43,636 bases of DNA from a virus (IMGVR_UViG_3300048592_000242:1-43636), one strand, 5' to 3'; positions 1-43,636 are shown, counted from the first letter of the stretch. Notes: a model not told the origin generated them from the sequence alone. Translations and numbers: made by a program.

Positions 1-127
1 CTGCGCGGCATGCTGACGGCCGCCGAGCTGCGCTATGTGCAAGGGCTCTGGACCTCGGTGAACTCGCTCTGGGGCGACGTGGTGGCGCTGCAGCGGGCCA
101 TGTCGGGCCTGCCGCCGGAAAAGGTCG
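1..127. repeat. 127-bp terminal overlap identical to 43510-43636 (circular contig)
   Basis: ctgcgcggcatg...gaaaaggtcg occurs at both ends, and the reading frame continues across the junction. Confidence 0.97.
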
Positions 128-1659
128 AGGCCCAGTCGTTCAAGGTGGTGTCGGCCGATGGTGTGCCGATGGAACTGGAAGGCGGCTACTGGCCGCTGGC
201 CTACGACCGCGACCGTTCGGCCGTGGGCGAGAACCAGACCGGCGAGGACGCGCTGCGCGTGATGATGGGCCAAGGGTTCACGAAGGCAGCCACGCCCAAG
301 GGCTACCAGAAGGCCCGCGTCGCCGAGTTTGAGGCTCCGCTGCAACTGGACTTCGGCGCCGTGCTGTCCCGGCATCTGGACCAAGTGATGACCGACATCG
401 CCTACCGCGGCGCCGTGCGCGACGTGATGTCGCTGCTGAACGACCAGCGCGTGAAAGAGTCGATCCTGGCCAAGCTCGGCCGGCCGGCCTACGACTCGCT
501 GCGGGGCATGGTGTCCTATTCGGTGTCGGGGTCGAGCCGGGTGGCCGGCACGGCGGCGTCTGGCTGGCAGAACCTGGCCGACGGCATCCTGTCGAACATG
601 ACCGTTTCGGCGCTGGCGCTCCGGCCCGACATCGCGCTCGGCAACTACACCTCGCAGTTCGTGCAGGGTCTGGACCGGACCGGGCTCCGGGCGCTGCTGC
701 GCGGCATGTGGCGGACCTATACGCCGGGCCGGGGCGACATGACCGCCGAGATCAAGGCGCTGTCGCCGTTCATGGCCGAGCGCCTGGACGAAACCGACTT
801 CATCTATTCGCAGGAACTGGCCCGGACCCGGCGCGAACGCGGGCTGGGCGCGGCCTACAAGCGCGTGATGATGTCCCTGCACCGCGGCGCCGACCATGAG
901 GTGAGCCGGGCAGTGTGGTGGGGCCGGTTCCAGAATGCGATCGACGCGGGCGAAACGCAGGCCGAGGCCGTGCGCCTGGCAGACAAGACGATCCGCCAGA
1001 CCCAGACCGCGACGGGGCGAAAAGACCTGTCCACGTTCGAGCGCGACCCTGGGTTCCGGCAGTCCCGCCAGTTCATGGGGCCGATGTTCGTCATTTTCGG
1101 GCGCCTGAACGCCGCAGCGCGCGGCCAGGGGCAGGCTCGGACGATTGGCCCGAGGGTGGCCACGTTGATGCTGCAGGTGTTCATGGCGCCCGCCCTGTTC
1201 GCCCTGATGGCCGGCCGCTGGCCCGAGGACGGGGACGACGATGACGACGAGATCGGGCTGAACGAGTGGGCCGTCTGGCTGGCGGCGAACACGGCCATGT
1301 TCCCGCTGCAGACCCTCCCGTTCCTGCGTGACGTGGGCTCGGGCATCGAGTCGGCGCTGACCGGCAACCCGATCAACCCGCGCGCGGCCCCGGTGTCGGC
1401 GGCCGGAGCGAACATCGTCAAGGCCGGGAACTCGATCTGGCAGAACCTCAAGGACTACCAGGAAACCGACGAGATGGACTGGTATCAGATGACGCGCGAC
1501 CTGACCACGATGGCAGCCCCGTTCGTGGCGGCGCCCGCGTCGCAGGTGCGAATCACGACCAAGGCGATCGAGGCGTTCAAGGACAACCCCGACGCCGGGG
1601 CGCTTGAGATGACCTCGATGGCCGTTTACGGCAAGATGCCCCCGACCAGCAGCGAATAA
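1..1659 (+). CDS. C-terminal part of the giant ejection/internal virion protein (continues from 36565 across the junction)
   Basis: Same frame as 36565-43636 via the 127-bp overlap; hydrophobic C-terminal helices; position just before the fibre gene. Confidence 0.88.
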   Translation: MRGMLTAAELRYVQGLWTSVNSLWGDVVALQRAMSGLPPEKVEAQSFKVVSADGVPMELEGGYWPLAYDRDRSAVGENQTGEDALRVMMGQGFTKAATPKGYQKARVAEFEAPLQLDFGAVLSRHLDQVMTDIAYRGAVRDVMSLLNDQRVKESILAKLGRPAYDSLRGMVSYSVSGSSRVAGTAASGWQNLADGILSNMTVSALALRPDIALGNYTSQFVQGLDRTGLRALLRGMWRTYTPGRGDMTAEIKALSPFMAERLDETDFIYSQELARTRRERGLGAAYKRVMMSLHRGADHEVSRAVWWGRFQNAIDAGETQAEAVRLADKTIRQTQTATGRKDLSTFERDPGFRQSRQFMGPMFVIFGRLNAAARGQGQARTIGPRVATLMLQVFMAPALFALMAGRWPEDGDDDDDEIGLNEWAVWLAANTAMFPLQTLPFLRDVGSGIESALTGNPINPRAAPVSAAGANIVKAGNSIWQNLKDYQETDEMDWYQMTRDLTTMAAPFVAAPASQVRITTKAIEAFKDNPDAGALEMTSMAVYGKMPPTSSE

Positions 1660-3768: not shown

Positions 3769-4521
3769 TTAATGGATAGTTGCTTTTTCGCCAAGAACTT
3801 GAATCATTTGCCGGCAGTCATACCCGTCGTGGACAATTTCGCCAAGTTCTCTCTTTCCTACAAGGTGCGGCCTAACAATCACTAGTCCGCCAGATGCAAT
3901 TCTGCGGACGTGGCCGCGGCGCCAGTGAAGGCGAACCCCGGTTCTTCCGAACTTCGTCTCATCGGAAAAGTGCCGTTCTTTTATTGTCACTACATTGTGC
4001 TTTATCAGCGGCGGGCGTCCGTTCTTTTCTCGCTTTTTATTTATCGCGGCCGGCGGGTATGTTTCGCTAATGTCCGCCATACCTGACGATAGAAGCCCCA
4101 ACCATTTATACAAGATTCCGGCTATGCCTCCGGTAAATTCCGTATCAAACAGATGCTCTATCCCTATGACGGGTGAAATGCCAAGTCTCCCCGGCTCACT
4201 GGAAAGCGCAAAGACAATGTTTTGAATATTCGCATCATTGTCTGCAACAAAACAGTTAAGGCCAACGCCGCACTTTTCTCCATTTTCGCCGGCATGAAAT
4301 GTGCATAGCATAAGGATTGAAAATTCATTGGCTTTGGCAAAAAATGCGGTACTAAAATACGGTAGGAAAATAATCCCTGACGCTGCTAGTTGGCCACCAA
4401 AATCGGCCGCCTCGTCAGGCACTTTTTTTGGGTCCGGCATTTTGAATACGGTAGCGCCGTCCTTAGCTGCGGCGGCAATTATTTTTTCAAAATGTCTTTT
4501 TACTATTTTTTGATTTGACAT
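3769..4521 (-). CDS. Low-GC hypothetical protein with C-terminal H-W-R-R-G-H motif (probable acquired gene)
   Basis: 250-aa ORF coupled to the exonuclease stop; visibly AT-rich; RLHWRRGHVRR...VRPHLVG. Confidence 0.75.
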   Translation of the reverse strand: MSNQKIVKRHFEKIIAAAAKDGATVFKMPDPKKVPDEAADFGGQLAASGIIFLPYFSTAFFAKANEFSILMLCTFHAGENGEKCGVGLNCFVADNDANIQNIVFALSSEPGRLGISPVIGIEHLFDTEFTGGIAGILYKWLGLLSSGMADISETYPPAAINKKREKNGRPPLIKHNVVTIKERHFSDETKFGRTGVRLHWRRGHVRRIASGGLVIVRPHLVGKRELGEIVHDGYDCRQMIQVLGEKATIH

Positions 4522-5474
4522 CACTTGGCCTTCTTCACCGACACGCGAACATTTCTGAACCCCGCCCGCGTATACGCCTTGATCTCGGCCGGCCCGGTCA
4601 GGCCAGCCGAAACGGAGTAGCCATCCACGAGAACCTTCTCGGCGTCGCCGATAGCCAAAAGCAGATCGGCCTTGCGAACCTGCTTTTCTTCCTCGGCGTC
4701 CTTCGCCAACCGGGACGCCTCGGCGTACTCCTGAACGGCCGCGATCACCTCGGGGTTCGACCGCGCGTCGAGCAGCTTGCCCGGCGCGGCGTACTGGTTC
4801 AGGGCGATCACGGCCTGCGCGTCGTCGGGCATCACCGGGTCCGGCGCGCGACCGGCGTCAAGGTCGGCCCAGAACTGGCGGGCCGCGGTCAGGATGCCGG
4901 CGTGAACCTGGGGGTCGGCCGTGCGCTCGATCACCTCGATCCGGTTGCCGCCGACCAGCACGCCGATGTACGCGCGGGCCAGTCCCGACACGAGCATCTG
5001 ATGCTGCACCTGCAGTTCGATGTGCGCGGGCGCTTCGATGAAATCATCCTCGATGGTCCAGCCGTCGCGGAAGGCGAGGAAGTCCACGCATTTGATTTCG
5101 AGGATGGCGAGCCGGTCGGGCGATTGCGGAAAAATCGGCGGCTCGGGCCGGTCGAAGCGATTGATGGCGTAGTCGAACGATGCGCCAAGCCGCGCGTCGG
5201 GCAGGCGCATGTAGTCCTTGAACGGCGCGATGCACCAACCCATGTCGTCGGCGATGCCGTGCGCGACGGCCATTTCTAACCGCCGCCCCCACGCCATGCG
5301 CGGGTTATCCGCGAGGCGGACCACCTCGGCATCGCGTTTCTGGTGCCACAACTCGAACTTCGTCTTGTACGGCGACAGGCCGAACAGTGCAGCCACGTCC
5401 GTCGAGGTCAGGTCTTGCGTTCGCAACTGTAGCCAGTGGGCTTCGTCGCGGGGCGTAATCGTCTGGCGTTCCAT
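4521..5474 (-). CDS. YqaJ/lambda-exonuclease-family recombination nuclease
   Basis: WLQLR..DLTSTDVAALFGLSPY, ASFDY, LEIKC, QVQHQM; RBS gagagggg before ATG 5474. Confidence 0.92.
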   Translation of the reverse strand: MERQTITPRDEAHWLQLRTQDLTSTDVAALFGLSPYKTKFELWHQKRDAEVVRLADNPRMAWGRRLEMAVAHGIADDMGWCIAPFKDYMRLPDARLGASFDYAINRFDRPEPPIFPQSPDRLAILEIKCVDFLAFRDGWTIEDDFIEAPAHIELQVQHQMLVSGLARAYIGVLVGGNRIEVIERTADPQVHAGILTAARQFWADLDAGRAPDPVMPDDAQAVIALNQYAAPGKLLDARSNPEVIAAVQEYAEASRLAKDAEEEKQVRKADLLLAIGDAEKVLVDGYSVSAGLTGPAEIKAYTRAGFRNVRVSVKKAK

Positions 5475-13249: not shown

Positions 13250-13512
13250 TCGGCGCCGCGCTGGCGCTCTTGGGCTCGGCCCTCGTGATCCGATTCCTTG
13301 CCTGGATGTGCAAGCCCGTCCAGTTCCACGACCTGACGCGTCCCGGCTCGTATCTGGACCAGGTGACGCGCGAGCGCGATAACTCGCTGGCGCTGGCCGG
13401 GTACGCCGCCCGCATGGAGGCCCGCGGGCTGGCGCCTGTTCGGCGGGTCGTGTGCAGGCCAGATCCGGCGCAGATCGCCGACTGGGAGAATGACGGGGGT
13501 GCGATCGCATGA
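13246..13512 (+). CDS. Hypothetical protein
   Basis: GTGA coupling; hydrophobic N-terminus. Confidence 0.65.
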   Translation: MIGAALALLGSALVIRFLAWMCKPVQFHDLTRPGSYLDQVTRERDNSLALAGYAARMEARGLAPVRRVVCRPDPAQIADWENDGGAIA

Positions 13513-13700
13513 GCGCCCGCCCGGTATTGACCTGCGCCAAGTGCGGCTCGGAACTGCCCGTCCACCACTTCCCCGGCGCCCACCCGGAATGGCAGGCGGT
13601 GTTTACCTGGCGCGATGGCGTGCGCGTGTGCGCCGACCCCTGCGTGACGGTATCGGCCCCGCAGCCTATCAACCCGCCGAGTGCGGAAACTGGAGATTAA
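13509..13700 (+). CDS. Small Cys-containing hypothetical protein
   Basis: ATGA coupling; CAKC motif. Confidence 0.65.
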   Translation: MSARPVLTCAKCGSELPVHHFPGAHPEWQAVFTWRDGVRVCADPCVTVSAPQPINPPSAETGD

Positions 13701-14341
13701 TGATGAGAGTCCGCAGAGAAAAAGGGTTGATCCAATTCTTCGACAACGGGCCGATGCACTACGGCGAAATCGCCTACATCGTCACCCGCCCCGGTGGCTT
13801 GCAGGCCGAGATTGAGTTCCCGTCCGACTGGCACGAAACGGCGCGGGGCTGGGTCCGGCTGGGTTTCGGCCTGTTCAAGGTGGCGTTTTCCTTCCCGTGG
13901 TCGAAGGTGGTCCCCGACGAATACCAGTGCAGCGGACCGCGCTACGGTTTCACGTTCTTTGACACTTCCCTGCATCTGCATTGGGGCAAGGACACCGGCC
14001 GCCGCACCGACCCCAGCAAGGTGATTGATATGCCTTGGGCGTGGCGGCACAAGGAGCATCGCATCCTGTCCGAAAAGGAAACGCACCCCTACCGCTACGT
14101 CCTGCGGAGCGGCGAAGCCCAGGAGCGCACGGCCACCATCAACGCCGAACAGCGCACATGGGTTCGCCCCTGGCTTCCGTGGAAGCTGGTGCGCAAGTCC
14201 ATCAACATCACTTTCAGCGATGAAGTTGGCGAGCGCAGCGGGTCGTGGAAAGGCGGCTGCATTGGTTGCAGCTACGAAATGAAACCCGGCGAAACCCCGC
14301 TGGAAACGCTGCGCCGCATGGAACGGGAGAGGAAGTTTTGA
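13700..14341 (+). CDS. Hypothetical protein, Trp-rich
   Basis: TAATG overlap; GGAG RBS. Confidence 0.75.
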   Translation: MMRVRREKGLIQFFDNGPMHYGEIAYIVTRPGGLQAEIEFPSDWHETARGWVRLGFGLFKVAFSFPWSKVVPDEYQCSGPRYGFTFFDTSLHLHWGKDTGRRTDPSKVIDMPWAWRHKEHRILSEKETHPYRYVLRSGEAQERTATINAEQRTWVRPWLPWKLVRKSINITFSDEVGERSGSWKGGCIGCSYEMKPGETPLETLRRMERERKF

Positions 14342-23803: not shown

Positions 23804-24162
23804 CGCGGGCGGCCATGACCCCGGAAGCCGGGCGCCGCGCCGCGCTGCGCGAGCGCATGGCGGCCGAACAGGCGCGGGCGGACCTGCAGTCGGTCATGGG
23901 CTCGGAAGCCGGCCGGCGGTTCATGTGGTCGCTGCTCGGCGACTGCGGCATGTACCGGGCATCGTTCAACAATTCCGGCTCGATCACCGCGTTCAACGAG
24001 GGCCAGCGCGACATCGGCCTGCGGCTCGTGGCCCGGATCACCCAGGAATGCCCCGAGCAGTACCTGGCCATGCAAGGGGAAGCGATCGCGGCAGACCGGA
24101 AGGCATCCGAGAACGCGGAACTTGACGACAACCTGAACAACGGGGAACATGATGATGGCTGA
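23800..24162 (+). CDS. Conserved post-portal protein (BPP-1 Bbp19-like)
   Basis: VMGSEAGRRFMWSLL...AFNEGQRDIGL. Confidence 0.8.
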   Translation: MTRAAMTPEAGRRAALRERMAAEQARADLQSVMGSEAGRRFMWSLLGDCGMYRASFNNSGSITAFNEGQRDIGLRLVARITQECPEQYLAMQGEAIAADRKASENAELDDNLNNGEHDDG

Positions 24163-24853
24163 ACCGACCGACACCGCGACGGACACCACCCCAGCGGCAA
24201 GCACGGACACGGCGGCAAGCGGTACCGGCGAGGCGAACACTGTCCTCGGCGGCGCAACGGCACCTGCCGGCGAAAAGCCGGGCGACGGTGCTGCCACGAC
24301 CACGGACAAGCCCGGCGATCAGGGTGCGGACGGCGGCGACGGGAAGGAAGGCGAGAAGTCGCCCGACAAGCCCGACGACAAGCCCGCAGGAGCGCCGGAG
24401 AAGTACGAACTTGAACTGCCCGAAGGCTTCACGCTTGACGACCAGGTGCTGGCCGAGTTTGACCCCGTGCTGCGGGAACTCAACCTCGACAACGCCCAGG
24501 CGTCCAAGTTGGCGGGGCTGTACGGCAAGCTCAAGCAGTCGGAAGCGGCGGCGTATGGCGAAACGGTGCAGGAGTGGGGCAAGCAATCCGCGGCAGACCC
24601 GGAAATCGGCGGCAAGGCGTTCACCGAGAACGTCGAACTGGCCCGGACCGCGTTGGCCGCACATGGCTCGCCCGAACTCAAGGGGCTGCTGGACTCGACG
24701 GGGCTGGGAAACCATCCCGAGGTGATCCGGTTCTTTGCCCGCGTTGGCAAGACGATTCAGAAAGAAGATGGCGTCGTGAAAGCGGACCGTTCTGGCGGAA
24801 GCCGGGCGAGCGCGGCCTCGGTGCTGTACGACAAAACCCCCTCCAAATCCTGA
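24149..24853 (+). CDS. Capsid scaffolding protein
   Basis: Low-complexity N-terminus, APEKYEL, DPEIGG, GLGNHPEVIRFF, ASVLY; precedes capsid gene. Confidence 0.85.
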   Translation: MMMAEPTDTATDTTPAASTDTAASGTGEANTVLGGATAPAGEKPGDGAATTTDKPGDQGADGGDGKEGEKSPDKPDDKPAGAPEKYELELPEGFTLDDQVLAEFDPVLRELNLDNAQASKLAGLYGKLKQSEAAAYGETVQEWGKQSAADPEIGGKAFTENVELARTALAAHGSPELKGLLDSTGLGNHPEVIRFFARVGKTIQKEDGVVKADRSGGSRASAASVLYDKTPSKS

Positions 24854-26758: not shown

Positions 26759-27055
26759 ATGGCTGAACTTCTTGCAATCGGGACGGCGGCGGCGGATTCG
26801 GACGAGTTCTCCGTGACCGCGGCAGCGCCAGTCGCTCTCTACATCAAGACCACGGCGAACGCGCCTGCTGACGGCGTGACGTTCATCCTGCAGTACAAGA
26901 AAGCCGACGGTACGACCTGGCAGAACATCGCGGCGCTGGACGCGAGCAACATCCTTGAGAAAGGAAACATCGTCGGCGCCGGCACGTTCCGCGTGAGCCG
27001 CGTGGCCAGCGTGCTGAATGCGGCAGGCATGGACTACGAGGGCGCTGCGGCGTGA
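26759..27055 (+). CDS. Small beta-rich virion protein, possible spike base/decoration
   Basis: 98 aa, alternating beta-strand pattern; GAGGA RBS; coupled to next gene. Confidence 0.6.
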   Translation: MAELLAIGTAAADSDEFSVTAAAPVALYIKTTANAPADGVTFILQYKKADGTTWQNIAALDASNILEKGNIVGAGTFRVSRVASVLNAAGMDYEGAAA

Positions 27056-28470
27056 TCCTGTCGCCTGTGCTGCGGCCAATCCTGGGCGGCGTGGTTCGCG
27101 CCATTGGCGCCCCCGGCACCGGCGGCGGGGGTGGGCCGGCCTATGAGTCGTTCGATACTCGCCAGTGGGCGACTGCGCTCTATGACCCTGCCGGCTACGT
27201 CGGCAGCGGCGTTGACCTTGGCGGCAAGACGCACCCGACGCCACCGACGTACAGCGGCGCGGCCCCGCAGCGGTTTGAGCGCACCTATATGCCGTTTTAC
27301 GGGCAGTCCTTGTCCGTTGGCGGCTCGGGGTTCCCGGCCCTATCCACGGAAGTCAGTGCCGTCGATGAAATGTGGGTGCGCGGTATGCGCCCGGAGGATG
27401 ACTATCACACCGAGAACGCCGCGATATGGTACGCCTCGGTGGTGCCGGCTGCGGAAAGCATCAGCCCGCGCTATGCCACGCAGGGCGAAACGCCGGGGCG
27501 TGGCTTTGCCGATGCGGTGCGCGAATTCGTCCGCAACGACTACGCCAGCGAGGGCTTGAAGTTTCACCTTGTCGCGCCTGGGCAGGGCGGCATCGAAATC
27601 ATCAAGCTATTGAAGGGTGACGTAAGCGGCTACTACGCCCGGATGCCGACGCAGATGGCGGCGCTGGCTGCGCTCAAGTCCGGCGTGGAAACCGTGGGCA
27701 TGGAGGCGATGCCGTTCATCCACGGCGAACGCGATTACCTGCTGGCGACCACGCAGGCCAATTACCTGTCCCGCCTGACCACGCTTTGCGCGGACATTGC
27801 CGCCGACGCCATCACGGAGTTCGGGCAGGCCAACACCGTGCAAGTGCTGGGAACACAGGTGGCATCGCACATCGTCAACAACAATCAGGTCAATGCACAG
27901 ATTGCCTTGGCCCAGCTTGAGGCCGACACCACCATCAGCAACTTCCACCTCGTTTGCCCCATGTACCCACTGCCGTTCAAGGGAGCCGACGTTCACCTGT
28001 CGGCCTACGGTTATGTGTGGCTGGGCGCGTATATCGCACTGGCCTACAAGCGCATCATCACCGACGACGTGGGCTGGGAAATCGTCAAGCCGCTTAGTTA
28101 CTCGACCGTGGGCGCGGTGTGCGAAATCACCTACAACGTCCCGACCGTGGCCGGCATCACGAACGAATTGGTGTGGGACACCACGCAGGTTCCCGCGCAG
28201 ACCAACCACGGCTTCCGGCTGTTCGATAGCGGCGGCTCCCCGCTGACCATTTCCTCCGTCGCAATCTCGGGCGGCGATACGGTGGTCATCACCGCCGCCG
28301 CGCCTATTCCGGTCGGGGCGTACATCGACTACGCCCGCCAAGGCGACGCGACCAAGGGGCTGGGCAACCTGCGCGACCGGGCCGGCGAAGTGCTACGGGC
28401 GCAGACCCGCAACTTCGACTTCCCGCTGCACAACTGGGCCGTCATCAGCGCATCGGGAGCTATCGCATGA
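27052..28470 (+). CDS. SGNH/sialate O-acetylesterase-like protein, probable virion appendage
   Basis: GQSLS, GQGG, IHGERD and DVH blocks; N-terminal hydrophobic peptide plus Gly linker. Confidence 0.75.
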   Translation: MILSPVLRPILGGVVRAIGAPGTGGGGGPAYESFDTRQWATALYDPAGYVGSGVDLGGKTHPTPPTYSGAAPQRFERTYMPFYGQSLSVGGSGFPALSTEVSAVDEMWVRGMRPEDDYHTENAAIWYASVVPAAESISPRYATQGETPGRGFADAVREFVRNDYASEGLKFHLVAPGQGGIEIIKLLKGDVSGYYARMPTQMAALAALKSGVETVGMEAMPFIHGERDYLLATTQANYLSRLTTLCADIAADAITEFGQANTVQVLGTQVASHIVNNNQVNAQIALAQLEADTTISNFHLVCPMYPLPFKGADVHLSAYGYVWLGAYIALAYKRIITDDVGWEIVKPLSYSTVGAVCEITYNVPTVAGITNELVWDTTQVPAQTNHGFRLFDSGGSPLTISSVAISGGDTVVITAAAPIPVGAYIDYARQGDATKGLGNLRDRAGEVLRAQTRNFDFPLHNWAVISASGAIA

Positions 28471-30448: not shown

Positions 30449-31735
30449 GTGGGCCAGCCTCTTATCCAACCGACGTTCTCCGGCGGCGAACTGTCCCCGT
30501 CGTTGCAGGCGCGCGTGGACATCGAGCGATACGGGAACTCGGTCAAGACTGGCAAGAACTTCCTCGTGCGCCCGTATGGCGGCATGGTGAACCGGCCGGG
30601 TTTTGAGTACCTGGGGAATTCCAAGTCGCAGAACGGCAACGCCTACCAGGCGCGGATCATCCCGTTCGTCTACAACACCGACATCGCCTACGTCGTGGAG
30701 TTGACCGACGAACTGGCCCGGTTCTGGTTCGATGGAGCGCTGGTTCAGGCCACGACCTCGACGGCCTACAACGGCGCCACGGTGTACGGGGTTGGCGATC
30801 TGGTGGTTTCTTCGAGCATCGTGTATCGCTCGCTGCAGGCCGCGAACACGGGCAACACGCCGGCATCGTCGCCCCTGTTCTGGTTGCCGAACCCGCCGTT
30901 CGAGTTGGCCACGCCCTACGACGTGGCCGACCTGTACGCGATCAAGTTCACGCAGTCGGCCGACGTGGTGTTCCTGACGCACGAGGACTATCCGCCGCAG
31001 AAGCTATCCCGCGTCACGCCAAACTCGTTCACCATCGAGGAATTCGTGACCAAGGAAGGCCCGTTCCGCGACGTGAACGCGAACGAGGCGTTCAAGATTT
31101 CCTCGTCGGCGACGGGCGGAAACGTCACGATCACGGCGAACGCGGACATTTTCACGGCCGACATGGTGGGCCTGCTGCTCTACATGGAGGCGAAGTCGCT
31201 GGGCCAGGTCAAGCCGTGGCAGCAGGGCGACCGCGCGGTGACGGTGGGTACGATCCGGCGCTCTGACGGCAAGTCGTACCGCGCCACGGCGATCGCGTCT
31301 GGCGGCACATGGGTTGAGTCTGGCTCGTTCCGCCCGGTCCACCAGCAGGGCCGCGAGTGGGACGGCCCAGGCGACACGCGCACGAACGGCACGCAGACCT
31401 GGGCGGTCGGCATCGAGTGGGAATACCTCGATTCGGGGTACGGCATCGTGCGCCTGACGGGCTACACGAATGCGACGACCATGACCGGGACGGTCGTTCG
31501 GACGCTTCCCGGCGGCGTTGTGGGCGGACTCGGGGCGCCGGCCAACACTTGGACGTTCTCGGGCGACGGCGTGGACACGACGTTTGCCGTGACCGGCGCC
31601 ACGTCTTACTCGAACGCCGACTACCAGGTGACGATCGACGGCGTGCTGGTGCAGCCCGACCCGAACTATGTCCCGCCGGTCCCGCCGATTGATGGTGGTG
31701 GCCCTGGCGGCGGTCCTGACTTCATCGAGCCTTGA
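30449..31735 (+). CDS. Tail nozzle (tubular protein B-like), N-terminal part
   Basis: QPTFSGGELSPSL..RVD, NFLVRPYGG..RPG, FTQSADV. Confidence 0.88.
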   Translation: MGQPLIQPTFSGGELSPSLQARVDIERYGNSVKTGKNFLVRPYGGMVNRPGFEYLGNSKSQNGNAYQARIIPFVYNTDIAYVVELTDELARFWFDGALVQATTSTAYNGATVYGVGDLVVSSSIVYRSLQAANTGNTPASSPLFWLPNPPFELATPYDVADLYAIKFTQSADVVFLTHEDYPPQKLSRVTPNSFTIEEFVTKEGPFRDVNANEAFKISSSATGGNVTITANADIFTADMVGLLLYMEAKSLGQVKPWQQGDRAVTVGTIRRSDGKSYRATAIASGGTWVESGSFRPVHQQGREWDGPGDTRTNGTQTWAVGIEWEYLDSGYGIVRLTGYTNATTMTGTVVRTLPGGVVGGLGAPANTWTFSGDGVDTTFAVTGATSYSNADYQVTIDGVLVQPDPNYVPPVPPIDGGGPGGGPDFIEP

Positions 31736-31747
31736 GAGGGTAGCGAC

Positions 31748-33403
31748 ATGGCACAAGGCTGGAACGTCAACCCCGTCACCGACATCATCACCTTCTTTGA
31801 GCCGCCTGCAACTGGCACGAACAACATCGTCGTGCAGCAGTACGCCGTGCCTGCGACGGGCGGCGCGACAGACGTATTCGCGCTGTCGGCGTGGGGACCG
31901 AAGTTCGGCTATCCGTCGGACGTGGAGTTCTTCGCCGACCGGCTTTTCTTCGCTGGCAACACGGCCCAGCCGCAAACGGTTTGGGCGTCCAAGAGTGGCA
32001 ATTATCCCGACTTTGGCAAGACGGTCCCGAGCGTGGACGATGACGCCATCACGGCCACGCTGAACGCGCGGCAGGTGAACGCGATCAAGGACTTGGTGCC
32101 GCTGGACAAGCTGCTGCTGCTGACGGCGGGCGGCGAGTGGAAAACGGCGGCCGGCCAGGATGACGTTCTGACGCCAAGCACGATCGCGTTCAAACCGCAG
32201 TCGTACAACGGCGCATCCGAGGTGCCGGCGCTGGTGATCGGCAACACGGCCCTGTATGTCCAGAACCGCGGCTATATCGTGCGCGACATCGGCTACCAGT
32301 TCGAGTCGGACGGTTACACCGGGAACGACCTGACGGTGTTCGCGTCGCATATGACCGAGGGCAAGCCGATTGTTTCGTGGTGTTACCAGCAGGTTCCCTA
32401 TTCCATTGTGTGGTCTGTCCGCGATGATGGCGTGCTGCTGGCGCTGACGTACATGAAGGAACAATCGGTCGTCGCATGGACCCCGATGGAAATTGACGGG
32501 TTTGTGGAGTCGGTCTGTGCGATTCCCGAGGGCGGCGAGGATGCGGTTTACATCGTGGTCGTGCGCGAAGGTTTCCGCGCGATTGAACGCCTGACCACGC
32601 GCATGATTACCGACGTTCGGGAAGCGAAGTTCCTTGACTCGTGCCTGACCTATGATGGACGGAACACGGATGCGGACCGCATAATGACGGTCGTTGCCGA
32701 CGTTCCTGGCGACTGGTCTGTGGGCGCAGGCGTGTCCTTGAGTTGCGTCGGCGTTGTTGAGCCGTTCTCGGCTGGCGACATTGGCGACAAGGTGGTGATG
32801 GGGTACAACGCGGGCACGAACGCCGTGGTGCGAATCACTGCGTACAATGATCCGTCGCTTGTATTCGGCGTCATTGAAACGCCAGGCGTTGACACGTTCA
32901 GCCTGTACGCGACCAGCGACTGGGGCATCGCCCGCGACGTGCTGACGGGGCTCGGCCATCTGAACGGCCGGACGGTCGGCGTGCTTGCTGATGGATTCGT
33001 GCAGGAGCAGCAGACCGTATCGGGCGGCTCGATCACGCTGACCGAGCATGCGGTTCTGGCCCATGTCGGCCTGCCCTACGATTCGGATTTTGAAACGCTG
33101 GAAATCAACATTCCCGGCGTGACCACGACGCGGCTGCAGAACAAGATCGTCAAGCGTGTCGGCGTCATCGTGCAGGACTCTCGCTCGATTCAGGTCGGCC
33201 CGACGTTCGACAAACTCAAGAAGCGCGAGTCGCGGCTGGTGTCTGACGACCCGAATGGCCTTCCGTCGTTGTTCCAAGGAACGGTCCCGGTCTGGATCGA
33301 ATCGGGCTGGGTGGCGCAGGGGCGGGTTTGCATCCGGCAGTCGGATCCGCTGCCTCTGGCCCTGCTCGGCGTGATCCCCGAGATGACGGTGGGCGATCTG
33401 TGA
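31748..33403 (+). CDS. Tail nozzle, C-terminal part (same frame as 30449-31735)
   Basis: GYPS.VEFFADRLFFAG, VWAS.SG.Y.DF, VVAW, LDS, GLGHLNG, VGLPY, PLPL. Confidence 0.88.
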   Translation: MAQGWNVNPVTDIITFFEPPATGTNNIVVQQYAVPATGGATDVFALSAWGPKFGYPSDVEFFADRLFFAGNTAQPQTVWASKSGNYPDFGKTVPSVDDDAITATLNARQVNAIKDLVPLDKLLLLTAGGEWKTAAGQDDVLTPSTIAFKPQSYNGASEVPALVIGNTALYVQNRGYIVRDIGYQFESDGYTGNDLTVFASHMTEGKPIVSWCYQQVPYSIVWSVRDDGVLLALTYMKEQSVVAWTPMEIDGFVESVCAIPEGGEDAVYIVVVREGFRAIERLTTRMITDVREAKFLDSCLTYDGRNTDADRIMTVVADVPGDWSVGAGVSLSCVGVVEPFSAGDIGDKVVMGYNAGTNAVVRITAYNDPSLVFGVIETPGVDTFSLYATSDWGIARDVLTGLGHLNGRTVGVLADGFVQEQQTVSGGSITLTEHAVLAHVGLPYDSDFETLEINIPGVTTTRLQNKIVKRVGVIVQDSRSIQVGPTFDKLKKRESRLVSDDPNGLPSLFQGTVPVWIESGWVAQGRVCIRQSDPLPLALLGVIPEMTVGDL

Positions 33404-36564: not shown

Positions 36565-39500
36565 GTGCCGACTGTTCCCCTGTTGAGCGATGAGGAAATG
36601 TATGGTCCGGCGTCGAACGACGAGGTGGCGCCGCCGCCCGCCGCCGCCCGCGCGCCCGTAGAACCGCCGGCCGGCTTCACCGCGCCAGCATCGCCCGGCG
36701 GCCTGCTGACCGATTCCGAGGTGTTCGGAACCGACGACCTCAAGGTTCGCGTCCGCCAGTCCGCCCGCGCGGCGTCTGGCAAGACGGCCGACCAGGTGCT
36801 GGGCGCCGAGGCGCTTGGCGACCGATTCGGCGTACCGGCGGCGGTGGCCGGCCGGAACATGGACGAGCTCAAGCGCCGGGCCGAGGTGGACGATTTCGCC
36901 TCGCTGGCGGACACGAACCCGCGCCTGGCCGAATGGTTCGCCGACGACCCGGACGCGGTGGCGGTCGCCCGCGATGACGTGGGCTCGCTGACCCGACTGG
37001 AACAGATGCTCGCGTTCTCGAACCCGATTACGGCCGGCATGGCGATTGGCGACCAGATCACGGGGCAGAACACGACCCGGCCGATGCTGGACGTGCAGGG
37101 TGCGCTCGTGTCCGGGCTGGGCCAGCCGATCGGGGCGGCGGTATCCGGCGCGGGCGCCATGATTGACGTGCGCCAGAACTCGATCGAACGGCTGGTGCGC
37201 GGCATTCTGGGCGACAACATGGCCGACCTGTCGGCGTTTGAGTTGCCCGACTACCTCAAGCCGGCCGAACTGCTGAACGACGCGGGCAACCTGATCGGCG
37301 ACGTGACCTCGGCCGCTGCGCCGCCGGAGGAGCGCCAGGGGCTCGCCACGGACATCATCTCGGGCTTGGGCCAGGTGGCGACCTATTCGGCCGTCACGCT
37401 CGCTACTGGCGGCACGGGCGGGCTTCTGCTGGGTGCCGGGCAGGGCGCCGACATTCAGGCCGACCGGGCGCGTGAGGCTGGCACCTACGGCACGGGCGCA
37501 TCGGACACGGCGATTGCCGGCGGCGCAGCCATCACGTCGGTCACGGAACGGCTGGGGCTCAAGTGGCTGTTCCGGCAGTTGCCGAAGTCGGTTCAGGCGA
37601 GCATGCAGCGCAAGGTGGCCGACATTCTGCTGGCCGGCGCGGGCGAGGCGACGCAGGAAATCACCGAGGGCGTAGCCCAGGATGCCGTCACGAAGGCGCT
37701 GGTGGACTCCGAATACGAGATGTTCCGCGGACTGGACCGTGAGGCGCTGGCGGCGGGCGGCGTCGGCCTGATCGTGCGCTCGATGCTGCACGTCGGCCGG
37801 GGCCGCATGGATTCCGAGCAGGCCAAGAACGAGCGCGGGGAGATTGCCGAAGTCGGCCGGCTGGTGGACGGGATGGGTCTGCGCGAGTCGGATCCGGGCC
37901 GGCTCAAGGCGGCGCTGGCCAGGCTCAAGACGGCCGGCTGGAACGATGTCTGGGTGCCCGTGACCGAGTGGCAGACCCTGTTCCAGACCGCGCAGGAATC
38001 GGACGCGGCGCGACTGGCGGCCGGCGTGACGGATTCGGACTACGCCGCGGCGCTGCTGTCGGGCGGCAAGCTGCGCGTCCCGACCGAGGGGTTCTATACG
38101 GGCCTGACGCCCGAGCAGCGCAAGCCGCTGTACGAGCATGGGCGCCGGACGCCGGACGGTATGACCCCGGCCGAGGCGGACGGGTACGACCCCGAGGTGG
38201 CGCTAGCCGAGATGATGGCCGAGATGGGCGTTGAAGGCCGGCCGGCGGGCGACCCGTCGAACGCGGTGTACGACGATTTCCGGCTGCAGCTTGAGCGCGC
38301 CGGGGCGTCGCCGGACGTGGCGGCGGCCCAGGCCGAGCAGTTGGCCGCGTTCGTGCGGACGGCCCAGGCGCGTTCCGGCGTGGCGATTGACACGGCCCGG
38401 CTGGCGGTGGTGGCCGAACTGGACCCGCGGCTGCAGGCCGTGCTGCGTGGCCCGCGCGCCGAGCCGGCGCTGGATGCGCTGATCGCGGGCGCGCGGTCGG
38501 GCCGGGTGTTCAATGAGCGCGAAGTTCAGGGCATGCGGCTGGTGTCGCTGCTCGTGAAGATGGGCGGCATCAACCCCGAGGCGGCCGGTGCCGGCGACTT
38601 GAAGGCGATGGACGCGCAGAAGCTGCGGCCGGGCCTGCTGAACCTGGCGGGCATGACGCTGGACGATGCGCTGCAGGCTGCGCGCGACGAGGGCTACATC
38701 ACGTCCCCGTTGTCGAACGAGGGCGAGGTGTACGACGGCGACGCGCCCGACATCAATTCGCTGCTGGAAATGATTTCGGGCGATCTGTCTGGGGTCGGCC
38801 CGGTGTACGCGCCCGAGTCGCTGAACATGGACCGGGCCGCTTTTAACGAAGGCGTGGCGGCGCTGCGCGACGAGTTGATGGCGAAAGGAATCACGCCCGA
38901 GCGGCTGGCCGAGATGTCGGACGCCGAGGTGCGGGCGGCGCTGGGGTTTGGTGGCGAGGTGGAGGGCGATGTGTTGGAGCAGGGCGGCGACCTACGCGAT
39001 CTGATCGCCACGCACAACCTGTCTGCCGAGAAGCTGATGCACGCGCTCCGCATGGGTGGGCTCGCCGTGCCTTCTCTGGCGATCACGAAAGGCGACTCCG
39101 CGATCACCGGGTTCGGCGACATCACGCTGATCGGCGACCGCGGTCTGATTGACCCGCGCGCTGGCGCCAAGGCGTTCGGCGCCGACATCTACTCGCCGCG
39201 CTACCCGGAGGTGTCGTTCAAGCTAGATAGTCAGGCAGCGAAGGATCTGCTTGCCATCTTGAAGCCGTACCGCGCAGCCGACGAGCGCGTGTATGTTGAC
39301 ACGAACAATGCCGCCGATTGGTTGCGAAGCGACGACGCTTTCCGCAAATACATGGAGGCCAGTGGAGAGGATGGCGGGCGCTACGCCGATCTTCGTGCCG
39401 GCGCCGAAAAACTGCTGCGCCAGGTCGGGGCGAAGGAGCAGATTTTCGACGGCTTCACGAATAGCGGGAATCGCCGATATAAGCCGCACAACCTCGAAAC

Positions 39501-42500
39501 CGTCGTCAAGATTCTGAAAAAGGAACTGCGCGGCGGCGAGAACTTTAATTACGGAGTCGGGTCGCTGCGAGCAAAATACACGCCGCAATTCCGGTCCGTC
39601 GAGGCCATCAAGAAGGAGAAGAATCGGCTGGTATCGGCCGACGACTTCGCTGCAATCAAGAAAGAGATTGACGAGGAATTTTTCTCGCTTGTCGAAGAAC
39701 TGCGCGCCTACGCGCCGCAGGCGCGCGACTATGGATTCGCAGACACGGTTATCAATGTAATGGAGGACGCGGCGAAAATTGGCGTACCGCGCGCGCTGGC
39801 TGACTACGGCATAAAGGAGGTTCCGGCCGAGTTGCAGCGCGATGTCGCCGCTTTCCTCGGCAAGATGCGCGACCTTCCGACGGAATACTTCGAGGTCAAG
39901 CAACTTAGGTCGGTAGGCGTCAATGAGTTTCGAGCAGCCGCGGTCCCGACCGGGACGCCGCAGGAAGTGATCGACGCGCTGAACAAGAGCGGACTGGATG
40001 TGGTCGAATACGAGCGCGGCGACGACGCGGCGCGGCGCGATGCCGTGCAGAAGGTGGCGCGCGAGCAGGATGTTCTTTTCCAGTCCCAGCAGCCGGCCGG
40101 CATCGACCTCACGCCCAGCCCCCGCACCCGCCGCATCACCTCCGGCCCGTCGTCGCTGACCTACTCGGTAGACGAGGCGGGCGCGAAAATCATCCTTGTC
40201 CGCACGACGAAAGAATCCCGAGGCCAGGGCGGCGCGCGTCAGGTCATGCAGGAATTCCTGCGGGCGACCGACGCGGCCGGCCTGCCCGTCACGCTGACCG
40301 TGGCCGAGCAGGATTCCACGACGGACGCGGGGCGGCTGGCTTCGTTTTATGAGTCGCTGGGGTTTGTGCGGGGGGAGGGGGATTCGATGGCGCGTGCTGT
40401 TGGGGCGCCGTCCGGTCCTGTGTCCGCCGGTGACCAGACGCAGACGGGGGAGTTTAAGGCGTGGAGCGAAGGCGCACCCGTTCTTGATGGCGAGCAGTTG
40501 GCCACTGAATACGAAGGTGGCCCGGCTGTCCTGACCTTGCTTCATGGAACGACCGCTGATTTCGATGCGTTTGACCGCGCCCGCGCCAACCCCGAGTCCG
40601 ACATGGGCGCCGGGTTCTATTTCAGCAACAACCCTGCTGACGTGGCGCCCAACTACGCCGGTACCGGGCCGGACTTGATCAACAAGATCGAGCGCGAAGC
40701 CGAGCGCATAGCGGGCGAGGAAGATCTGGAATATGACGACCCGGACGTTCGCGCCCGCGCGCGTGCCAAGTTCGTCGCCAATGAAGGTTCCACGCTCAAG
40801 GTTTTCGTCAAGACCGAGAACCCGGCCATCGTCGGTGGCGACAACGAGACGCGCTTGACCTACGAGGAAAGCTACGACGAGGAAACCGACGAATACGGCG
40901 AGCCCGAGGGGACGCTGGTTGATTTCGTGGATGCGCTTCGCCGCGTGTCGGCTGATTTCAACGACGTGAACATCGAGGAATCAATTTCCGTTCTGTTCTC
41001 GGAAGGCATTGACGGCGACATCGGACTTGAATCCGTCATTGAAACCTTGCGCGGCTCGGAAGGGATGGCCTACACGACGGACAATGACGGCAACGTGGCG
41101 GTGAATGAACTGATCCGTTCCGCGTTGGAGATGGCAGGGTTTGACGCCATCATCGACTACACGGTGGACAAGAAGTTCGGGAGCCAGCGCGACGGCGGAA
41201 AGAAGATGGACGGCATGAACGCGAATACCGTTCACGTCATCGCGTTCAACCCCACGCAAATAAAATCCGCCACCGGCAACCGCGGCACGTTCGACCCGAA
41301 CGACCCGTCCATTCTCAACCAGGACAAGCGCGGATCCCTAACCATCAACCGCTACCCCGGCGGCGCCCGCGCGTTCGTCATCAAGCTCGGCGAGAAAAGG
41401 GACTTCTCCACGTTCCTGCACGAGTCGGCGCATTTCTACCTGGAAATTCTGCGCGAGATCGACGCGGAACTGCGGGCGATTCCGCCGACGGGGCTGACCG
41501 AATCGCAGGCGCGAGTCATCGCCGACCACGACAAGCTGCTCGCCGAACTGGGCGTGCCGGACTTCGATTCGATTACCGTCAAGGAACACGAGGCGTTCGC
41601 CGAAACCTACGAGGCGTATCTGCGCGAGGGCAAGGCGCCGTCGGTCAGGCTGGCCCGTGCATTCCAGAAGTTCGGCACCTGGCTCAAGATGGTGTACCGC
41701 ACCCTTCGTGGCCTGCCGAATCAGCAGTTGAACGACGAAACGCGCGGCATCCTTGACCGCATGCTGGCCACCGACGACGAGATCGACGCGGCACGTTCCG
41801 CCCAGTCGCTCGGCGCCCTGTTCGCCACGCCCGAGGCGGCTGGCATGACGCCGGACGAGTTCGCCCAGTATCAGGAGGCGCTGCGCGTCGCCCGCGATTC
41901 GGCCGTGACGGGCGAGGCCGCCGAGCAATACCGCTACGAGGTCGCGGAAACCAAGCGGTGGCGCACCGAGGAAATGGCGCGTATTCGCGCCGAGGTGGCC
42001 GTGGACGTGGACGCGTCGCCGGGCATGCGGGCCAAGTACCTGCTGCGCGCCGGCACGCTGCCGGACGGCTCGCCCCTGCCCGCCGGCCAGTCGCCGATCA
42101 AGCTCAACACGGCGGCCGTGACCGATAAGTACGGCAAGGAGTGGGTCAAGAAGAACCTGGCGTTTATGACGGCCGGCGACGGTGTGCACCCCGACCTGGC
42201 CGCCCCGGTCCTGGGCTTCAAGGACGGCGAGGCGCTGCTGCACGCGCTGGCCAACACCCCGAACCGGGCCGACGCCATCAAGGCCGAGGCCGAGCGCGTG
42301 TGGCGCGAACGGCACCCGGACCCCATGACCGACGGGGAACTGTCTGACCGCGTGCAGGCGCGTGTCCACAATGACGCGCAGGCCGAGGTGATGATCCGCG
42401 AGATTGCCGCCCTGAACGCGCGCGCCGGCCGTCCCGATGGCAAGCCGACCGTGCTGGCCGTGATGAAACAGGCCGCCGAACGCATCGCAGGCGCCCAGCG

Positions 42501-43636
42501 CGTGGGCTCGCTGAACCCCGGCCAGTACCGCACGACCGAGGCCAAGGCCGGCCGGGACGCTCTCAAGGCCGCCGCCGCCGGGAAGTGGGACGAGGCCGTG
42601 TCCGCCCGCCGCCGGCAACTGTTCGCCGGCCTGATGTACCGCGCCACGCTGGACGCCAAGGAGCGCGCCGAGGCCGTGCGCGACAAGATGGTGAAGCTGG
42701 CCAAGAAGCCCGCCCAGGAGCGATTCGCGCGTGCCGGCTGGGAATCCTACCTTGAGCGCGTGAACGACATCCTGCACGCCTACGACGTGCGCCGGCTGTC
42801 GGAAAAGGAACTGGGCCGCCGCCGGTCGATGCGCGCCTGGATCGAGGCCCAGCAGGAAGCCGGCGACGTGACGGCGATCAGCGAGGAACTGCTGGCCCGC
42901 GTCGAGGCCCAGTCCACGACCAACTGGCGCAACGCCACGGTGGACGAACTGGACGGCGTGGGCGACGCGCTGACGAACATCGAGCATCTGGCCCGGCTGA
43001 AAAACAAGCTGCTGGCCGGCCGGCGCCAGGCGGAAAAGGACGATGCGATCGAGGAACTGCTGGCACGGGCGAATGATTCGCTGGCCGATACGGTCGTGCG
43101 GCCGGTATCGCGGGCCGACCTGACGCTGCCCCAGCGTGCCGTGCGCCAGGTCGAGGCCAAGCGCGACGAAGTGACCCGCCCGGAAAACTTCATTGAGGCG
43201 CTGGATGGCGGCGAGTCCGGGCCGTGGCACGACTTCATCTGGTCGGCGATGGAGTCGGCCGAGGCCAAGATGGCGGCACTGCGCCGGGACATCGGGTCCA
43301 AGCTCAAGGCGCTGCGAACGGAGATGCCGACCAGCATCGTGTCCCTGCTTGGCGAGCCCGTGACCGTGTTCGGCATCCCGACCACGCGGGCCAGCCTGAT
43401 CGGCGCCGTGCTGAATACCGGGAACGCCGGCAACCTGCAGCGGCTGCGGGACGGCGGTATCGCGTTCAACGACCAGAAGTTGCGCCTGACCGACGCCCAA
43501 GTGGCCGAGCTGCGCGGCATGCTGACGGCCGCCGAGCTGCGCTATGTGCAAGGGCTCTGGACCTCGGTGAACTCGCTCTGGGGCGACGTGGTGGCGCTGC
43601 AGCGGGCCATGTCGGGCCTGCCGCCGGAAAAGGTCG
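36565..43636 (+). CDS. Giant polyvalent ejection protein (~2867 aa with 1-1659): unknown/ART-like, GNAT, ART-PolyVal and HExxH domains
   Basis: GTG 36565 after GGAG; frame open in the stretches I translated and no terminated same-frame ORF in the track; HNL..PS..YFEVK, RGQG..FYESLGF, LHGT..GFYFS..QIKSATGN, HESAH. Confidence 0.88.
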   Translation, partial: MPTVPLLSDEEMYGPASNDEVAPPPAAARAPVEPPAGFTAPASPGGLLTDSEVFGTDDLKVRVRQSARAASGKTADQVLGAEALGDRFGVPAAVAGRNMDELKRRAEVDDFASLADTNPRLAEWFADDPDAVAVARDDVGSLTRLEQMLAFSNPITAGMAIGDQITGQNTTRPMLDVQGALVSGLGQPIGAAVSGAGAMIDVRQNSIERLVRGILGDNMADLSAFELPDYLKPAELLNDAGNLIGDVTSAAAPPEERQGLATDIISGLGQVATYSAVTLATGGTGGLLLGAGQGADIQADRAREAGTYGTGASDTAIAGGAAITSVTERLGLKWLFRQLPKSVQASMQRKVADILLAGAGEATQEITEGVAQDAVTKALVDSEYEMFRGLDREALAAGGVGLIVRSMLHVGRGRMDSEQAKNERGEIAEVGRLVDGMGLRESDPGRLKAALARLKTAGWNDVWVPVTEWQTLFQTAQESDAARLAAGVTDSDYAAALLSGGKLRVPTEGFYTGLTPEQRKPLYEHGRRTPDGMTPAEADGYDPEVALAEMMAEMGVEGRPAGDPSNAVYDDFRLQLERAGASPDVAAAQAEQLAAFVRTAQARSGVAIDTARLAVVAELDPRLQAVLRGPRAEPALDALIAGARSGRVFNEREVQGMRLVSLLVKMGGINPEAAGAGDLKAMDAQKLRPGLLNLAGMTLDDALQAARDEGYITSPLSNEGEVYDGDAPDINSLLEMISGDLSGVGPVYAPESLNMDRAAFNEGVAALRDELMAKGITPERLAEMSDAEVRAALGFGGEVEGDVLEQGGDLRDLIATHNLSAEKLMHALRMGGLAVPSLAITKGDSAITGFGDITLIGDRGLIDPRAGAKAFGADIYSPRYPEVSFKLDSQAAKDLLAILKPYRAADERVYVDTNNAADWLRSDDAFRKYMEASGEDGGRYADLRAGAEKLLRQVGAKEQIFDGFTNSGNRRYKPHNLETVVKILKKELRGGENFNYGVGSLRAKYTPQFRSVEAIKKEKNRLVSADDFAAIKKEIDEEFFSLVEELRAYAPQARDYGFADTVINVMEDAAKIGVPRALADYGIKEVPAELQRDVAAFLGKMRDLPTEYFEVKQLRSVGVNEFRAAAVPTGTPQEVIDALNKSGLDVVEYERGDDAARRDAVQKVAREQDVLFQSQQPAGIDLTPSPRTRRITSGPSSLTYSVDEAGAKIILVRTTKESRGQGGARQVMQEFLRATDAAGLPVTLTVAEQDSTTDAGRLASFYESLGFVRGEGDSMARAVGAPSGPVSAGDQTQTGEFKAWSEGAPVLDGEQLATEYEGGPAVLTLLHGTTADFDAFDRARANPESDMGAGFYFSNNPADVAPNYAGTGPDLINKIEREAERIAGEEDLEYDDPDVRARARAKFVANEGSTLKVFVKTENPAIVGGDNETRLTYEESYDEETDEYGEPEGTLVDFVDALRRVSADFNDVNIEESISVLFSEGIDGDIGLESVIETLRGSEGMAYTTDNDGNVAVNELIRSALEMAGFDAIIDYTVDKKFGSQRDGGKKMDGMNANTVHVIAFNPTQIKSATGNRGTFDPNDPSILNQDKRGSLTINRYPGGARAFVIKLGEKRDFSTFLHESAHFYLEILREIDAELRAIPPTGLTESQARVIADHDKLLAELGVPDFDSITVKEHEAFAETYEAYLREGKAPSVRLARAFQKFGTWLKMVYRTLRGLPNQQLNDETRGILDRMLATDDEIDAARSAQSLGALFATPEAAGMTPDEFAQYQEALRVARDSAVTGEAAEQYRYEVAETKRWRTEEMARIRAEVAVDVDASPGMRAKYLLRAGTLPDGSPLPAGQSPIKLNTAAVTDKYGKEWVKKNLAFMTAGDGVHPDLAAPVLGFKDGEALLHALANTPNRADAIKAEAERVWRERHPDPMTDGELSDRVQARVHNDAQAEVMIREIAALNARAGRPDGKPTVLAVMKQAAERIAGAQRVGSLNPGQYRTTEAKAGRDALKAAAAGKWDEAVSARRRQLFAGLMYRATLDAKERAEAVRDKMVKLAKKPAQERFARAGWESYLERVNDILHAYDVRRLSEKELGRRRSMRAWIEAQQEAGDVTAISEELLARVEAQSTTNWRNATVDELDGVGDALTNIEHLARLKNKLLAGRRQAEKDDAIEELLARANDSLADTVVRPVSRADLTLPQRAVRQVEAKRDEVTRPENFIEALDGGESGPWHDFIWSAMESAEAKMAALRRDIGSKLKALRTEMPTSIVSLLGEPVTVFGIPTTRASLIGAVLNTGNAGNLQRLRDGGIAFNDQKLRLTDAQVAELRGMLTAAELRYVQGLWTSVNSLWGDVVALQRAMSGLPPEKV
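43510..43636. repeat. Terminal overlap identical to 1-127
   Basis: Exact match by inspection. Confidence 0.97.

Follow-up and report, generated by a model that had tools for sequence, protein, structure and literature searches.

How can a single phage virion protein carry several unrelated enzymes, and where could these be separated from it? The question is raised by the viral DNA stretch IMGVR_UViG_3300048592_000242:1-43636 (43,636 nucleotides; from here: the window), in which a giant ejection-type protein contains an array of cargo modules bordered by short peptides of the form [LFY]-x-Q and followed by a zincin-like metallopeptidase domain. An initial annotation of this DNA had proposed that the protein is a delivery polyprotein which releases its enzymes by cutting itself at these motifs. 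We report that the motif marks the borders of a defined cargo slot, that it is conserved as a peptide and that it follows the protein by which the cargo is carried. These results point to a processing signal, probably read by the peptidase of the same protein.

Cargo modules and their junction motifs

The window represents a phage contig that is complete and circular, with a terminal overlap of 127 nt. Therefore, the open reading frame (ORF) at 36565-43509 runs on at 1-1659, giving 2,867 aa in total. Residues 1-2357 are encoded at 36565..43636, up to the circular junction, and the C-terminal part at 1..1659, with phrog_9880 matched in both parts; these and all features described below are located on the + strand unless stated otherwise.

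The cargo slot is preceded by an optional block (aa 630-795, 38452..38949) and opens with the first junction motif, DVLEQ (aa 802-806, 38968-38982). The first cargo module (aa 807-1173, 38983..40083, 40.5 kDa) consists of a predicted RNase of the PBECR5 family (PF18814, aa 811-971, Pfam E-value 3e-22) and an unannotated C-terminal half, and it ends with the second motif, DVLFQ (aa 1169-1173, 40069-40083). Homologue alignments of this module stop at Q1173, and the motif itself is kept in 12/13 aligned homologues, with F and Q invariant in an alignment of 10 rows, each trimmed to the surroundings of the motif. The second cargo module (aa 1174-1586, 40084..41322, 44.2 kDa) comprises a GNAT-like part fused to an ART-PolyVal domain (PF18760, Pfam E-value 9e-14) and ends with the third motif, SILNQ (aa 1582-1586, 41308-41322), which forms the C-border of the slot in front of the peptidase. 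The initial annotation had placed all three motifs, as well as the HESAH histidine (41419), HEAF (41587) and a further copy, QTLFQ (37972), at the correct positions. Its reading of the cargo as a ~360-aa module followed by a GNAT plus an ART-like domain also stood, with PBECR5 and ART-PolyVal now named and the GNAT match remaining below the cutoff (PF13508, aa 1212-1268, E-value 0.0025).

The cargo differs from its surroundings in composition. The GC content at third codon positions (GC3) is 0.77 in the cargo (601/780 codons) and 0.89 in the flanks (1402/1577; p=1.7e-13), in agreement with the less GC-biased codon usage noticed before; for the first module alone it is 0.755. In the H-Y-D clade of ART-PolyVal domains the His is located on strand 1, the Tyr on strand 2 and the Asp on strand 5, according to the text available for PMC5512222. 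Among about 119 ART homologues, the residue corresponding to H1327 is conserved in 97% and that corresponding to Y1352 in 100%, while at the candidate third position, N1554 in the window, 48% of the homologues have D. The family predictions presented in that article suggest RNase, acetyltransferase and ADP-ribosyltransferase activities of the cargo and a putative anti-host role.

Bare LxQ tripeptides occur in the window protein at the level of chance (10 observed, 9.6 expected), and the claim that they mark borders therefore depends on homologues. A single-sequence search yielded 4 loci and alignment searches 240 more. Altogether 256 loci were fetched, each of the three large alignment scans being represented by its best 80 loci, which together with the window gave 257 peptidase matches, in 254 of which HExxH lay close to where it is expected. 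Removal of entries with <70 aa upstream or >80% identity left 199 homologues including the window.

At the C-border, [LFY]xQ was found 21-60 aa before HExxH in 188/199 homologues, compared with 24% (1334/5461) of same-size control windows downstream and 31% (1658/5291) upstream; the 11 misses were mostly near-matches such as MFQ or VDQ. The cultured members BPP-1, AF, HU1, Carin1, Jess A and Tabio all possess the motif before HExxH. The optional block is present in 65 of the 199 homologues, 15 of them free of cargo and 50 with cargo. In 45/50 of the cargo alleles a motif lies at most 30 aa from the end of the block (controls 17% and 25%), and in 12/15 of the cargo-free alleles the motif occurs exactly once in the stretch from the block to the peptidase. 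The 50 cargo slots span 140-2,176 aa and contain LPD3, PBECR3, PBECR5, MuF_C, RadC, GGDEF, GNAT, ART, LPD23, LPD5, LPD1, HATPase and unannotated modules. Because these families are unrelated, the motif belongs to no single cargo. Within the slots, alignment ends fell into 55 clusters, 17 of which also had nearby alignment starts; a motif was located at most 5 aa away in 9/17 of the latter, against a background of 7.4%, and in 4/38 of the remaining clusters. Thus, a short conserved motif recurs at the module borders, as is characteristic of self-processing polyproteins. In three homologues (L005, L006 and L016) the core peptidase is preceded by a second, different HExxH domain, located in the cargo slot or close to it.

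A weight matrix was built on 231 homologue border sites, with the window excluded. In the window protein it ranked Q806, Q1173 and Q1586 first (scores 14.4, 14.3 and 13.7), followed by Q474 (9.2). A third-best score of 13.7 was reached in 0/1,000 shuffles, while a top score of at least 9.2 occurred in 380/1,000. Q474 belongs to QTLFQ (aa 470-474, 37972..37986) in the conserved N-terminal core. The site is conserved in 59/63 BLAST-aligned and 109/153 profile-aligned homologues, and its middle residue is more hydrophobic ([YLF][FLW]Q). It may be a fourth signal or a structural element, and need not be of the same kind as the border motifs.

Cargo exchange and the carrier-specific tail

Comparison of close relatives allowed us to follow the exchange of cargo at the DNA level. 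Of 33 groups of close relatives, 15 include pairs in which the sequence upstream of the peptidase is unrelated, and the motif was kept by both partners in all of them (15/15). When followed back from the peptidase, DNA identity breaks within -5 to +10 codons of the Q in 11/15 of these swap groups. Two expectations of the initial annotation were thereby borne out: the cargo varies exactly between the motifs, and it is swappable, with unrelated cargo families occupying the same slot in close relatives.

Its further suggestion that the motifs act as DNA recombination joints fared worse. The Gln codons of the motif are 65% CAG and 35% CAA (76/24 in the core), Leu is encoded by each of its six codons, and at most 0.44 bits are held by the positions neighbouring the motif. 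Likewise, no common repeat was detected when the motif copies of the window were compared as DNA. Since synonymous codons vary as freely as in the core, selection appears to act on the peptide and not on a DNA joint, yet it is at the motif or just 3' of it that the swaps occur. The phage has genes for RecT and YqaJ. Judging from these sequences, recombination supplies the swaps and selection keeps the peptide.

The ART module occurs also in large proteins of other kinds, which provided an independent view of the signal. Of 611 large proteins with this module, the best 120 were analysed: 50 with a Bbp10-type peptidase (the type present in the window, see below) and 70 without, 9 of the 120 lacking the terminal signature. 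The tail of the module ends with [LFY]xQ in 46/47 Bbp10-type carriers but in 4/64 other carriers, in which the same register mostly reads I-[RT]-x-S, with Ser commonest at the Q position. For a quick tree, the tail was removed and the ART body of 119 of the 120 proteins was used, with support from SH-aLRT values only; in it the two kinds of carriers are interspersed. There are 15 carrier changes, at least 4 of them forced by strong branches, and the tail follows the carrier; the well-supported sister pairs P0060/P0075 and P0017/P0038 differ in both. Because the tail tracks the carrier across the tree, it is apparently re-tailored when cargo changes carrier. The reader of the motif would then be encoded by the carrier or its phage, while the tracking as such does not fix the reader's identity. 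Among the non-Bbp10 carriers (P0003-P0122), the endings IRYS/IRFS, ITRS, ILKS, IRYQR and ITKA recur and may be junction codes of other clades.

The peptidase and the possible readers of the motif

The domain downstream of the third motif (41326..41664) contains an RG strand, an FVIKL strand, the HESAH sequence (41419-41433, His at aa 1619) and a putative third metal ligand, Glu1676 (41590-41592). H, E, H and the downstream E are invariant in a 150-row alignment, the rows of which had been selected for HExxH. Among 160 loci found with a pattern free of HExxH, HExxH is present in 158 and ExxAxxxExY in 159, the ExY overlapping the search pattern. AlphaFold predicted a confident site of two strands and two helices, with block means of 88-97 over the strands and the HExxH helix. 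HExxH lies on a helix and the Glu in the following conserved helix, the arrangement that characterizes zincin metallopeptidases (MPTases), so that the zincin-like site of HESAH and HEAFAE recognized in the initial annotation is supported. No member of the set turned out to have a peptidase that has long been dead; one (L193) has HQAGH beside a near-identical relative with HEAGH.

Searches for known relatives returned little. Foldseek found no match in the PDB at E<=0.001, BFVD contained uncharacterised family members only, a sequence search of solved structures gave SprT/Spartan alone (E-value 0.09), and no Pfam peptidase model matched the window protein. Among 104 members, the peptidase families in the matches listed were Peptidase_M3 (3 members, E-value 0.03) and Peptidase_S51 (2 members, E-value 0.003). 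Two homologues carry additional sequence between HExxH and the third-ligand helix, the spacing being 174 aa in the L041:5969 ORF and 134 aa in the L016:4215 ORF instead of the usual 47-57; L041 keeps HExxH, and its insert begins with the ART-like FHGT.

We consider it probable that the zincin recognizes [LFY]xQ in its own polypeptide and cuts there, freeing the cargo modules. One motif in empty alleles plus one for each added module is what is expected of a processing site, while a structural strand needs only the copy adjoining the domain. Both parts of this reading, recognition by the protein's own zincin and a cut that follows recognition, are inferred. Cleavage would yield two free cargo pieces, one of 40.5 kDa with PBECR5 and one of 44.2 kDa with GNAT-ART, and leave an 84-kDa N-terminal and a 1,281-aa C-terminal part. 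The candidate scissile bond lies either after the Q or ahead of the hydrophobic residue. The cut would probably take place in the course of ejection or afterwards, and copies may cut one another in trans. Recombination at the motif or just 3' of it may bring in new modules, RecT and YqaJ being encoded by the phage, and these modules would be retained only if they end in the signal.

Several observations weigh against self-cleavage. None of the members is known to be cleaved, and the [LFY]xQ pattern was chosen after inspection of the same sequences on which it was counted. The window's GNAT/ART border has no motif but reads G-D-Q (aa 1289-1291, 40429-40437), although homologous ART starts have a motif upstream in 12/16; a close motif is absent from 8/17 of the internal junction clusters; in long alleles without the optional block a motif lies at most 35 aa from the core end in 54/87 only; and a conserved [LFY]xQ copy (aa 472-474) lies inside the core. 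The residue after the Q is loose, with Pro in 9-11%. The linker between Q and RG, measured in 179 homologues, ranges from 0 to 28 aa and is mostly 2 or 5-7 aa, and with at most 2 aa in 55/179 it is short for a cut in cis. In the AlphaFold model of the window the motif is a low-confidence coil (block means 55-61). Zincins are among the best fold matches, but these are weak (VIA, Z 4.7 with rmsd 4.1 and 109 aligned; Z 4.3 with rmsd 6.6 and 101 aligned). Furthermore, the MPTase proteins N4 vRNAP, ArdC and TraC1 are packaged or transferred uncut, according to the text available for PMC5512222.

The structural models leave room for a different role, in which the motif is a beta-strand that serves for docking or completes the fold, either as the first strand of the zincin sheet or by binding an exosite, and successive copies would exchange at packaging or ejection with the protein staying uncut. 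The AlphaFold model of a natural homologue in which the linker is 14 residues long (L052) shows a beta-strand in the four residues ahead of the Q (block pLDDT 67), with predicted contact to the sheet of the peptidase. This strand may lie in the cleft as a substrate, but it fits the missing first strand of a three-stranded zincin sheet equally well. A three-stranded sheet was described by Iyer et al. (PMC5512222, in the text available), and the sheet has two post-motif strands in the window model and three in the long-linker model, where the motif joins. The common very short linkers, the loose position after the Q and the uncut packaging of N4 vRNAP would suit this role as well. We nevertheless regard it as unlikely. 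One domain needs one strand, whereas copies persist at the N-border (in the 45 of 50 cargo alleles) and at internal joints, where the flanks have fully diverged. AlphaFold left the strand unplaced in the short-linker protein of the window, and the catalytic Glu is kept in 158/160 loci.

If the motif is a cleavage signal, another factor could read it, such as a head-maturation protease, a scaffold protein or a host protease, with the zincin acting on something else, e.g. a host protein. Many head proteins are cut by prohead proteases, as described in the text available for PMC10052503, and a motif that is specific for the carrier would follow a phage-specific enzyme, too. The window offers one candidate, the ORF at 24149..24853, to which the PHROG 458 label 'protease' is attached, and the automatically assigned name of some Atlas clusters is 'putative peptidase'. 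However, its nearest Pfam-named relative in the Atlas clusters is the T7 capsid assembly protein, i.e. a scaffold; the ORF looks scaffold-like, and the PHROG 458 family label may be wrong. No column with [LFY]xQ conserved to at least 30% was found among 120 IVP-C or 126 IVP-B homologous ORFs (IVP, internal virion protein), the scaffold giving 1 hit in this comparison, and the capsid proteins of BPP-1 are uncleaved according to the available text of PMC3863775. The motif is moreover common to prophages of distant Proteobacteria, which argues against a host enzyme. Altogether, we think it rather improbable that a reader other than the zincin is responsible.

Still less probable is that the motifs are mere relics or joints of DNA recombination through microhomology, devoid of a protein function. 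The breaks of the swaps at or near the motif (11/15 groups) and the presence of RecT and YqaJ would be in line with this, but the free use of Gln and Leu codons, the nearly uninformative neighbouring positions and the lack of a DNA repeat in the window speak against it, as does the ART tail, which changes with the carrier. Finally, the number of bare LxQ in the window protein is what a common tripeptide would give by chance, an explanation that we find hardly credible in view of the border enrichment, the shuffles and the carrier comparison. For Q806, Q1173 and Q1586, chance is ruled out by these three lines of evidence.

Phage context and relation to known systems

The portal, GP7-type capsid, Bbp16 cement, Bbp19, nozzle, IVP-A, T7 gp14-like IVP-B and GH108 lysozyme IVP-C encoded in the window identify a podophage of the BPP-1/epsilon15 type. 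The gene for the giant protein is the last in the ejection operon, located after the nozzle, IVP-A, T7 gp14-like IVP-B and lysozyme IVP-C genes and before the tail fibre gene. Matches to its peptidase region were found in 49 phage records, among them BPP-1, Pseudomonas AF and HU1, Xanthomonas CP2 and Tabio, Carin1 and Jess A; the match to BPP-1 Bbp10 has 35% identity (tblastn, E-value 1e-41). By homology and by its position after IVP-A, -B and -C the protein belongs to the Bbp10/IVP-D group. The available text of Hardies et al. (PMC4819975) lists Bbp10 as an IVP-D homologue in the position of T7 gp16, and the 2,300-aa gp35 of Xanthomonas phage Xacm4-11 is a core-protein candidate according to the text available for bioRxiv 10.64898/2026.02.16.706137. 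Because of this homology, the gene order and the T7 gp16-like position, the window protein is likely to be packaged and ejected together with the DNA. It contains unrelated domains in one polypeptide, among them LPD22 near the N-terminus (PF18834, aa 68-149, 36766..37011, E-value 1.2e-15), and is encoded among late virion genes. The polyvalent, ejection-type protein envisaged in the initial annotation is thus recovered in its Pfam domains, its gene position and its relation to Bbp10. A single hydrophobic segment was detected at aa 385-405 of the C-terminal part.

Some other genes of the window deserve mention. An anti-CBASS protein of the Acb3 family is encoded at 13490-14341 (+; PF25187, E-value 9e-47, two matched stretches). 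At 27052-28470 (+), flanked by the head genes on one side and the tail tube gene on the other, a tail-fibre-like protein is encoded that contains a SASA sialic-acid acetylesterase domain. The nozzle is encoded by two genes, 30449-31735 and 31748-33403 (both +), each matching one half of phrog_376. Between the RecT and YqaJ genes lies a 251-aa ORF (3769-4524, -) of low GC content (about 0.48-0.55) and without a Pfam match.

The exact candidate sites and fragment sizes, together with the cultured phages AF, Jess A, Carin1 and BPP-1, turn a standing hypothesis into a simple experiment. The motif may also serve as a parsing rule by which unannotated giant proteins can be split into candidate counter-defence enzymes, many of them without a Pfam match. 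If cleavage is true, it would explain how unrelated folded enzymes can ride inside a protein thought also to form a DNA conduit. As a wider proposal, to which we give an even chance, polyvalent ejection proteins would be self-processing polyproteins with a zincin code specific for each clade ([LFY]-x-Q for the Bbp10 clade), in which moving modules are re-tagged and the capsid delivers exchangeable free enzymes.

Picornavirus 3C and potyvirus NIa belong to self-processing polyproteins that are cut at hydrophobic-x-Gln sites, and the cassettes of polymorphic toxins are bordered by VENN in CdiA and DPxG in Rhs proteins. These systems resemble the window protein in having a short conserved border peptide beside variable cargo. 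In contrast to 3C and NIa, the enzyme here would be a zincin and not a cysteine protease, and compared with CdiA and Rhs the cargo is internal and arrayed instead of C-terminal. A further parallel is the cleavage of head-packaged proteins at short motifs by prohead proteases, to which gp21 of phage T4 belongs. In SPN3US, the prohead protease gp245 processes ejection proteins, as described in the text available for PMC10052503. Unlike in these systems, no credible separate protease was found in the window, and among the neighbouring internal virion proteins IVP-B and IVP-C showed no conserved motif.

The closest relatives are BPP-1 Bbp10 and the IVP-D proteins of the epsilon15 subgroup, which share the homologous peptidase region (35% identity), the gene order and the T7 gp16-like position. 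The available texts of the respective papers (PMC4819975, PMC3863775, bioRxiv 10.64898/2026.02.16.706137) treat them as core or ejection proteins only and mention no peptidase, cargo slot or processing; in the searched literature, with subscription journals mostly outside its coverage, there was no report of the motif or of the processing of a Bbp10-type protein. MPTase domains in virion proteins are known from N4 virion RNA polymerase, with HExxH in its C1 subdomain (PMC13434306, in the text available), and from P1 DdrB, which is processed before packaging according to the available text of PMC5512222; N4 vRNAP, packaged uncut, differs from what we propose.

Polyvalent proteins and their self-processing were already proposed in 2017. 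In the available text of PMC5512222, Iyer, Burroughs, Anand, de Souza and Aravind suggested injection, autoproteolytic release and an analogy to the polyproteins of RNA viruses. That text names no junction or cleavage motif, so that the proposed release by the metallopeptidase had no site to test; the supplementary alignments, which lie outside this scope, may show the motif. The window protein is like those described there, a giant encoded among late genes with LPD22, PBECR, GNAT, ART-PolyVal and an HExxH...E peptidase. Unlike that account, the present analysis provides a fixed and defined cargo slot, a defined junction signal and the tracking of this signal with its carrier.

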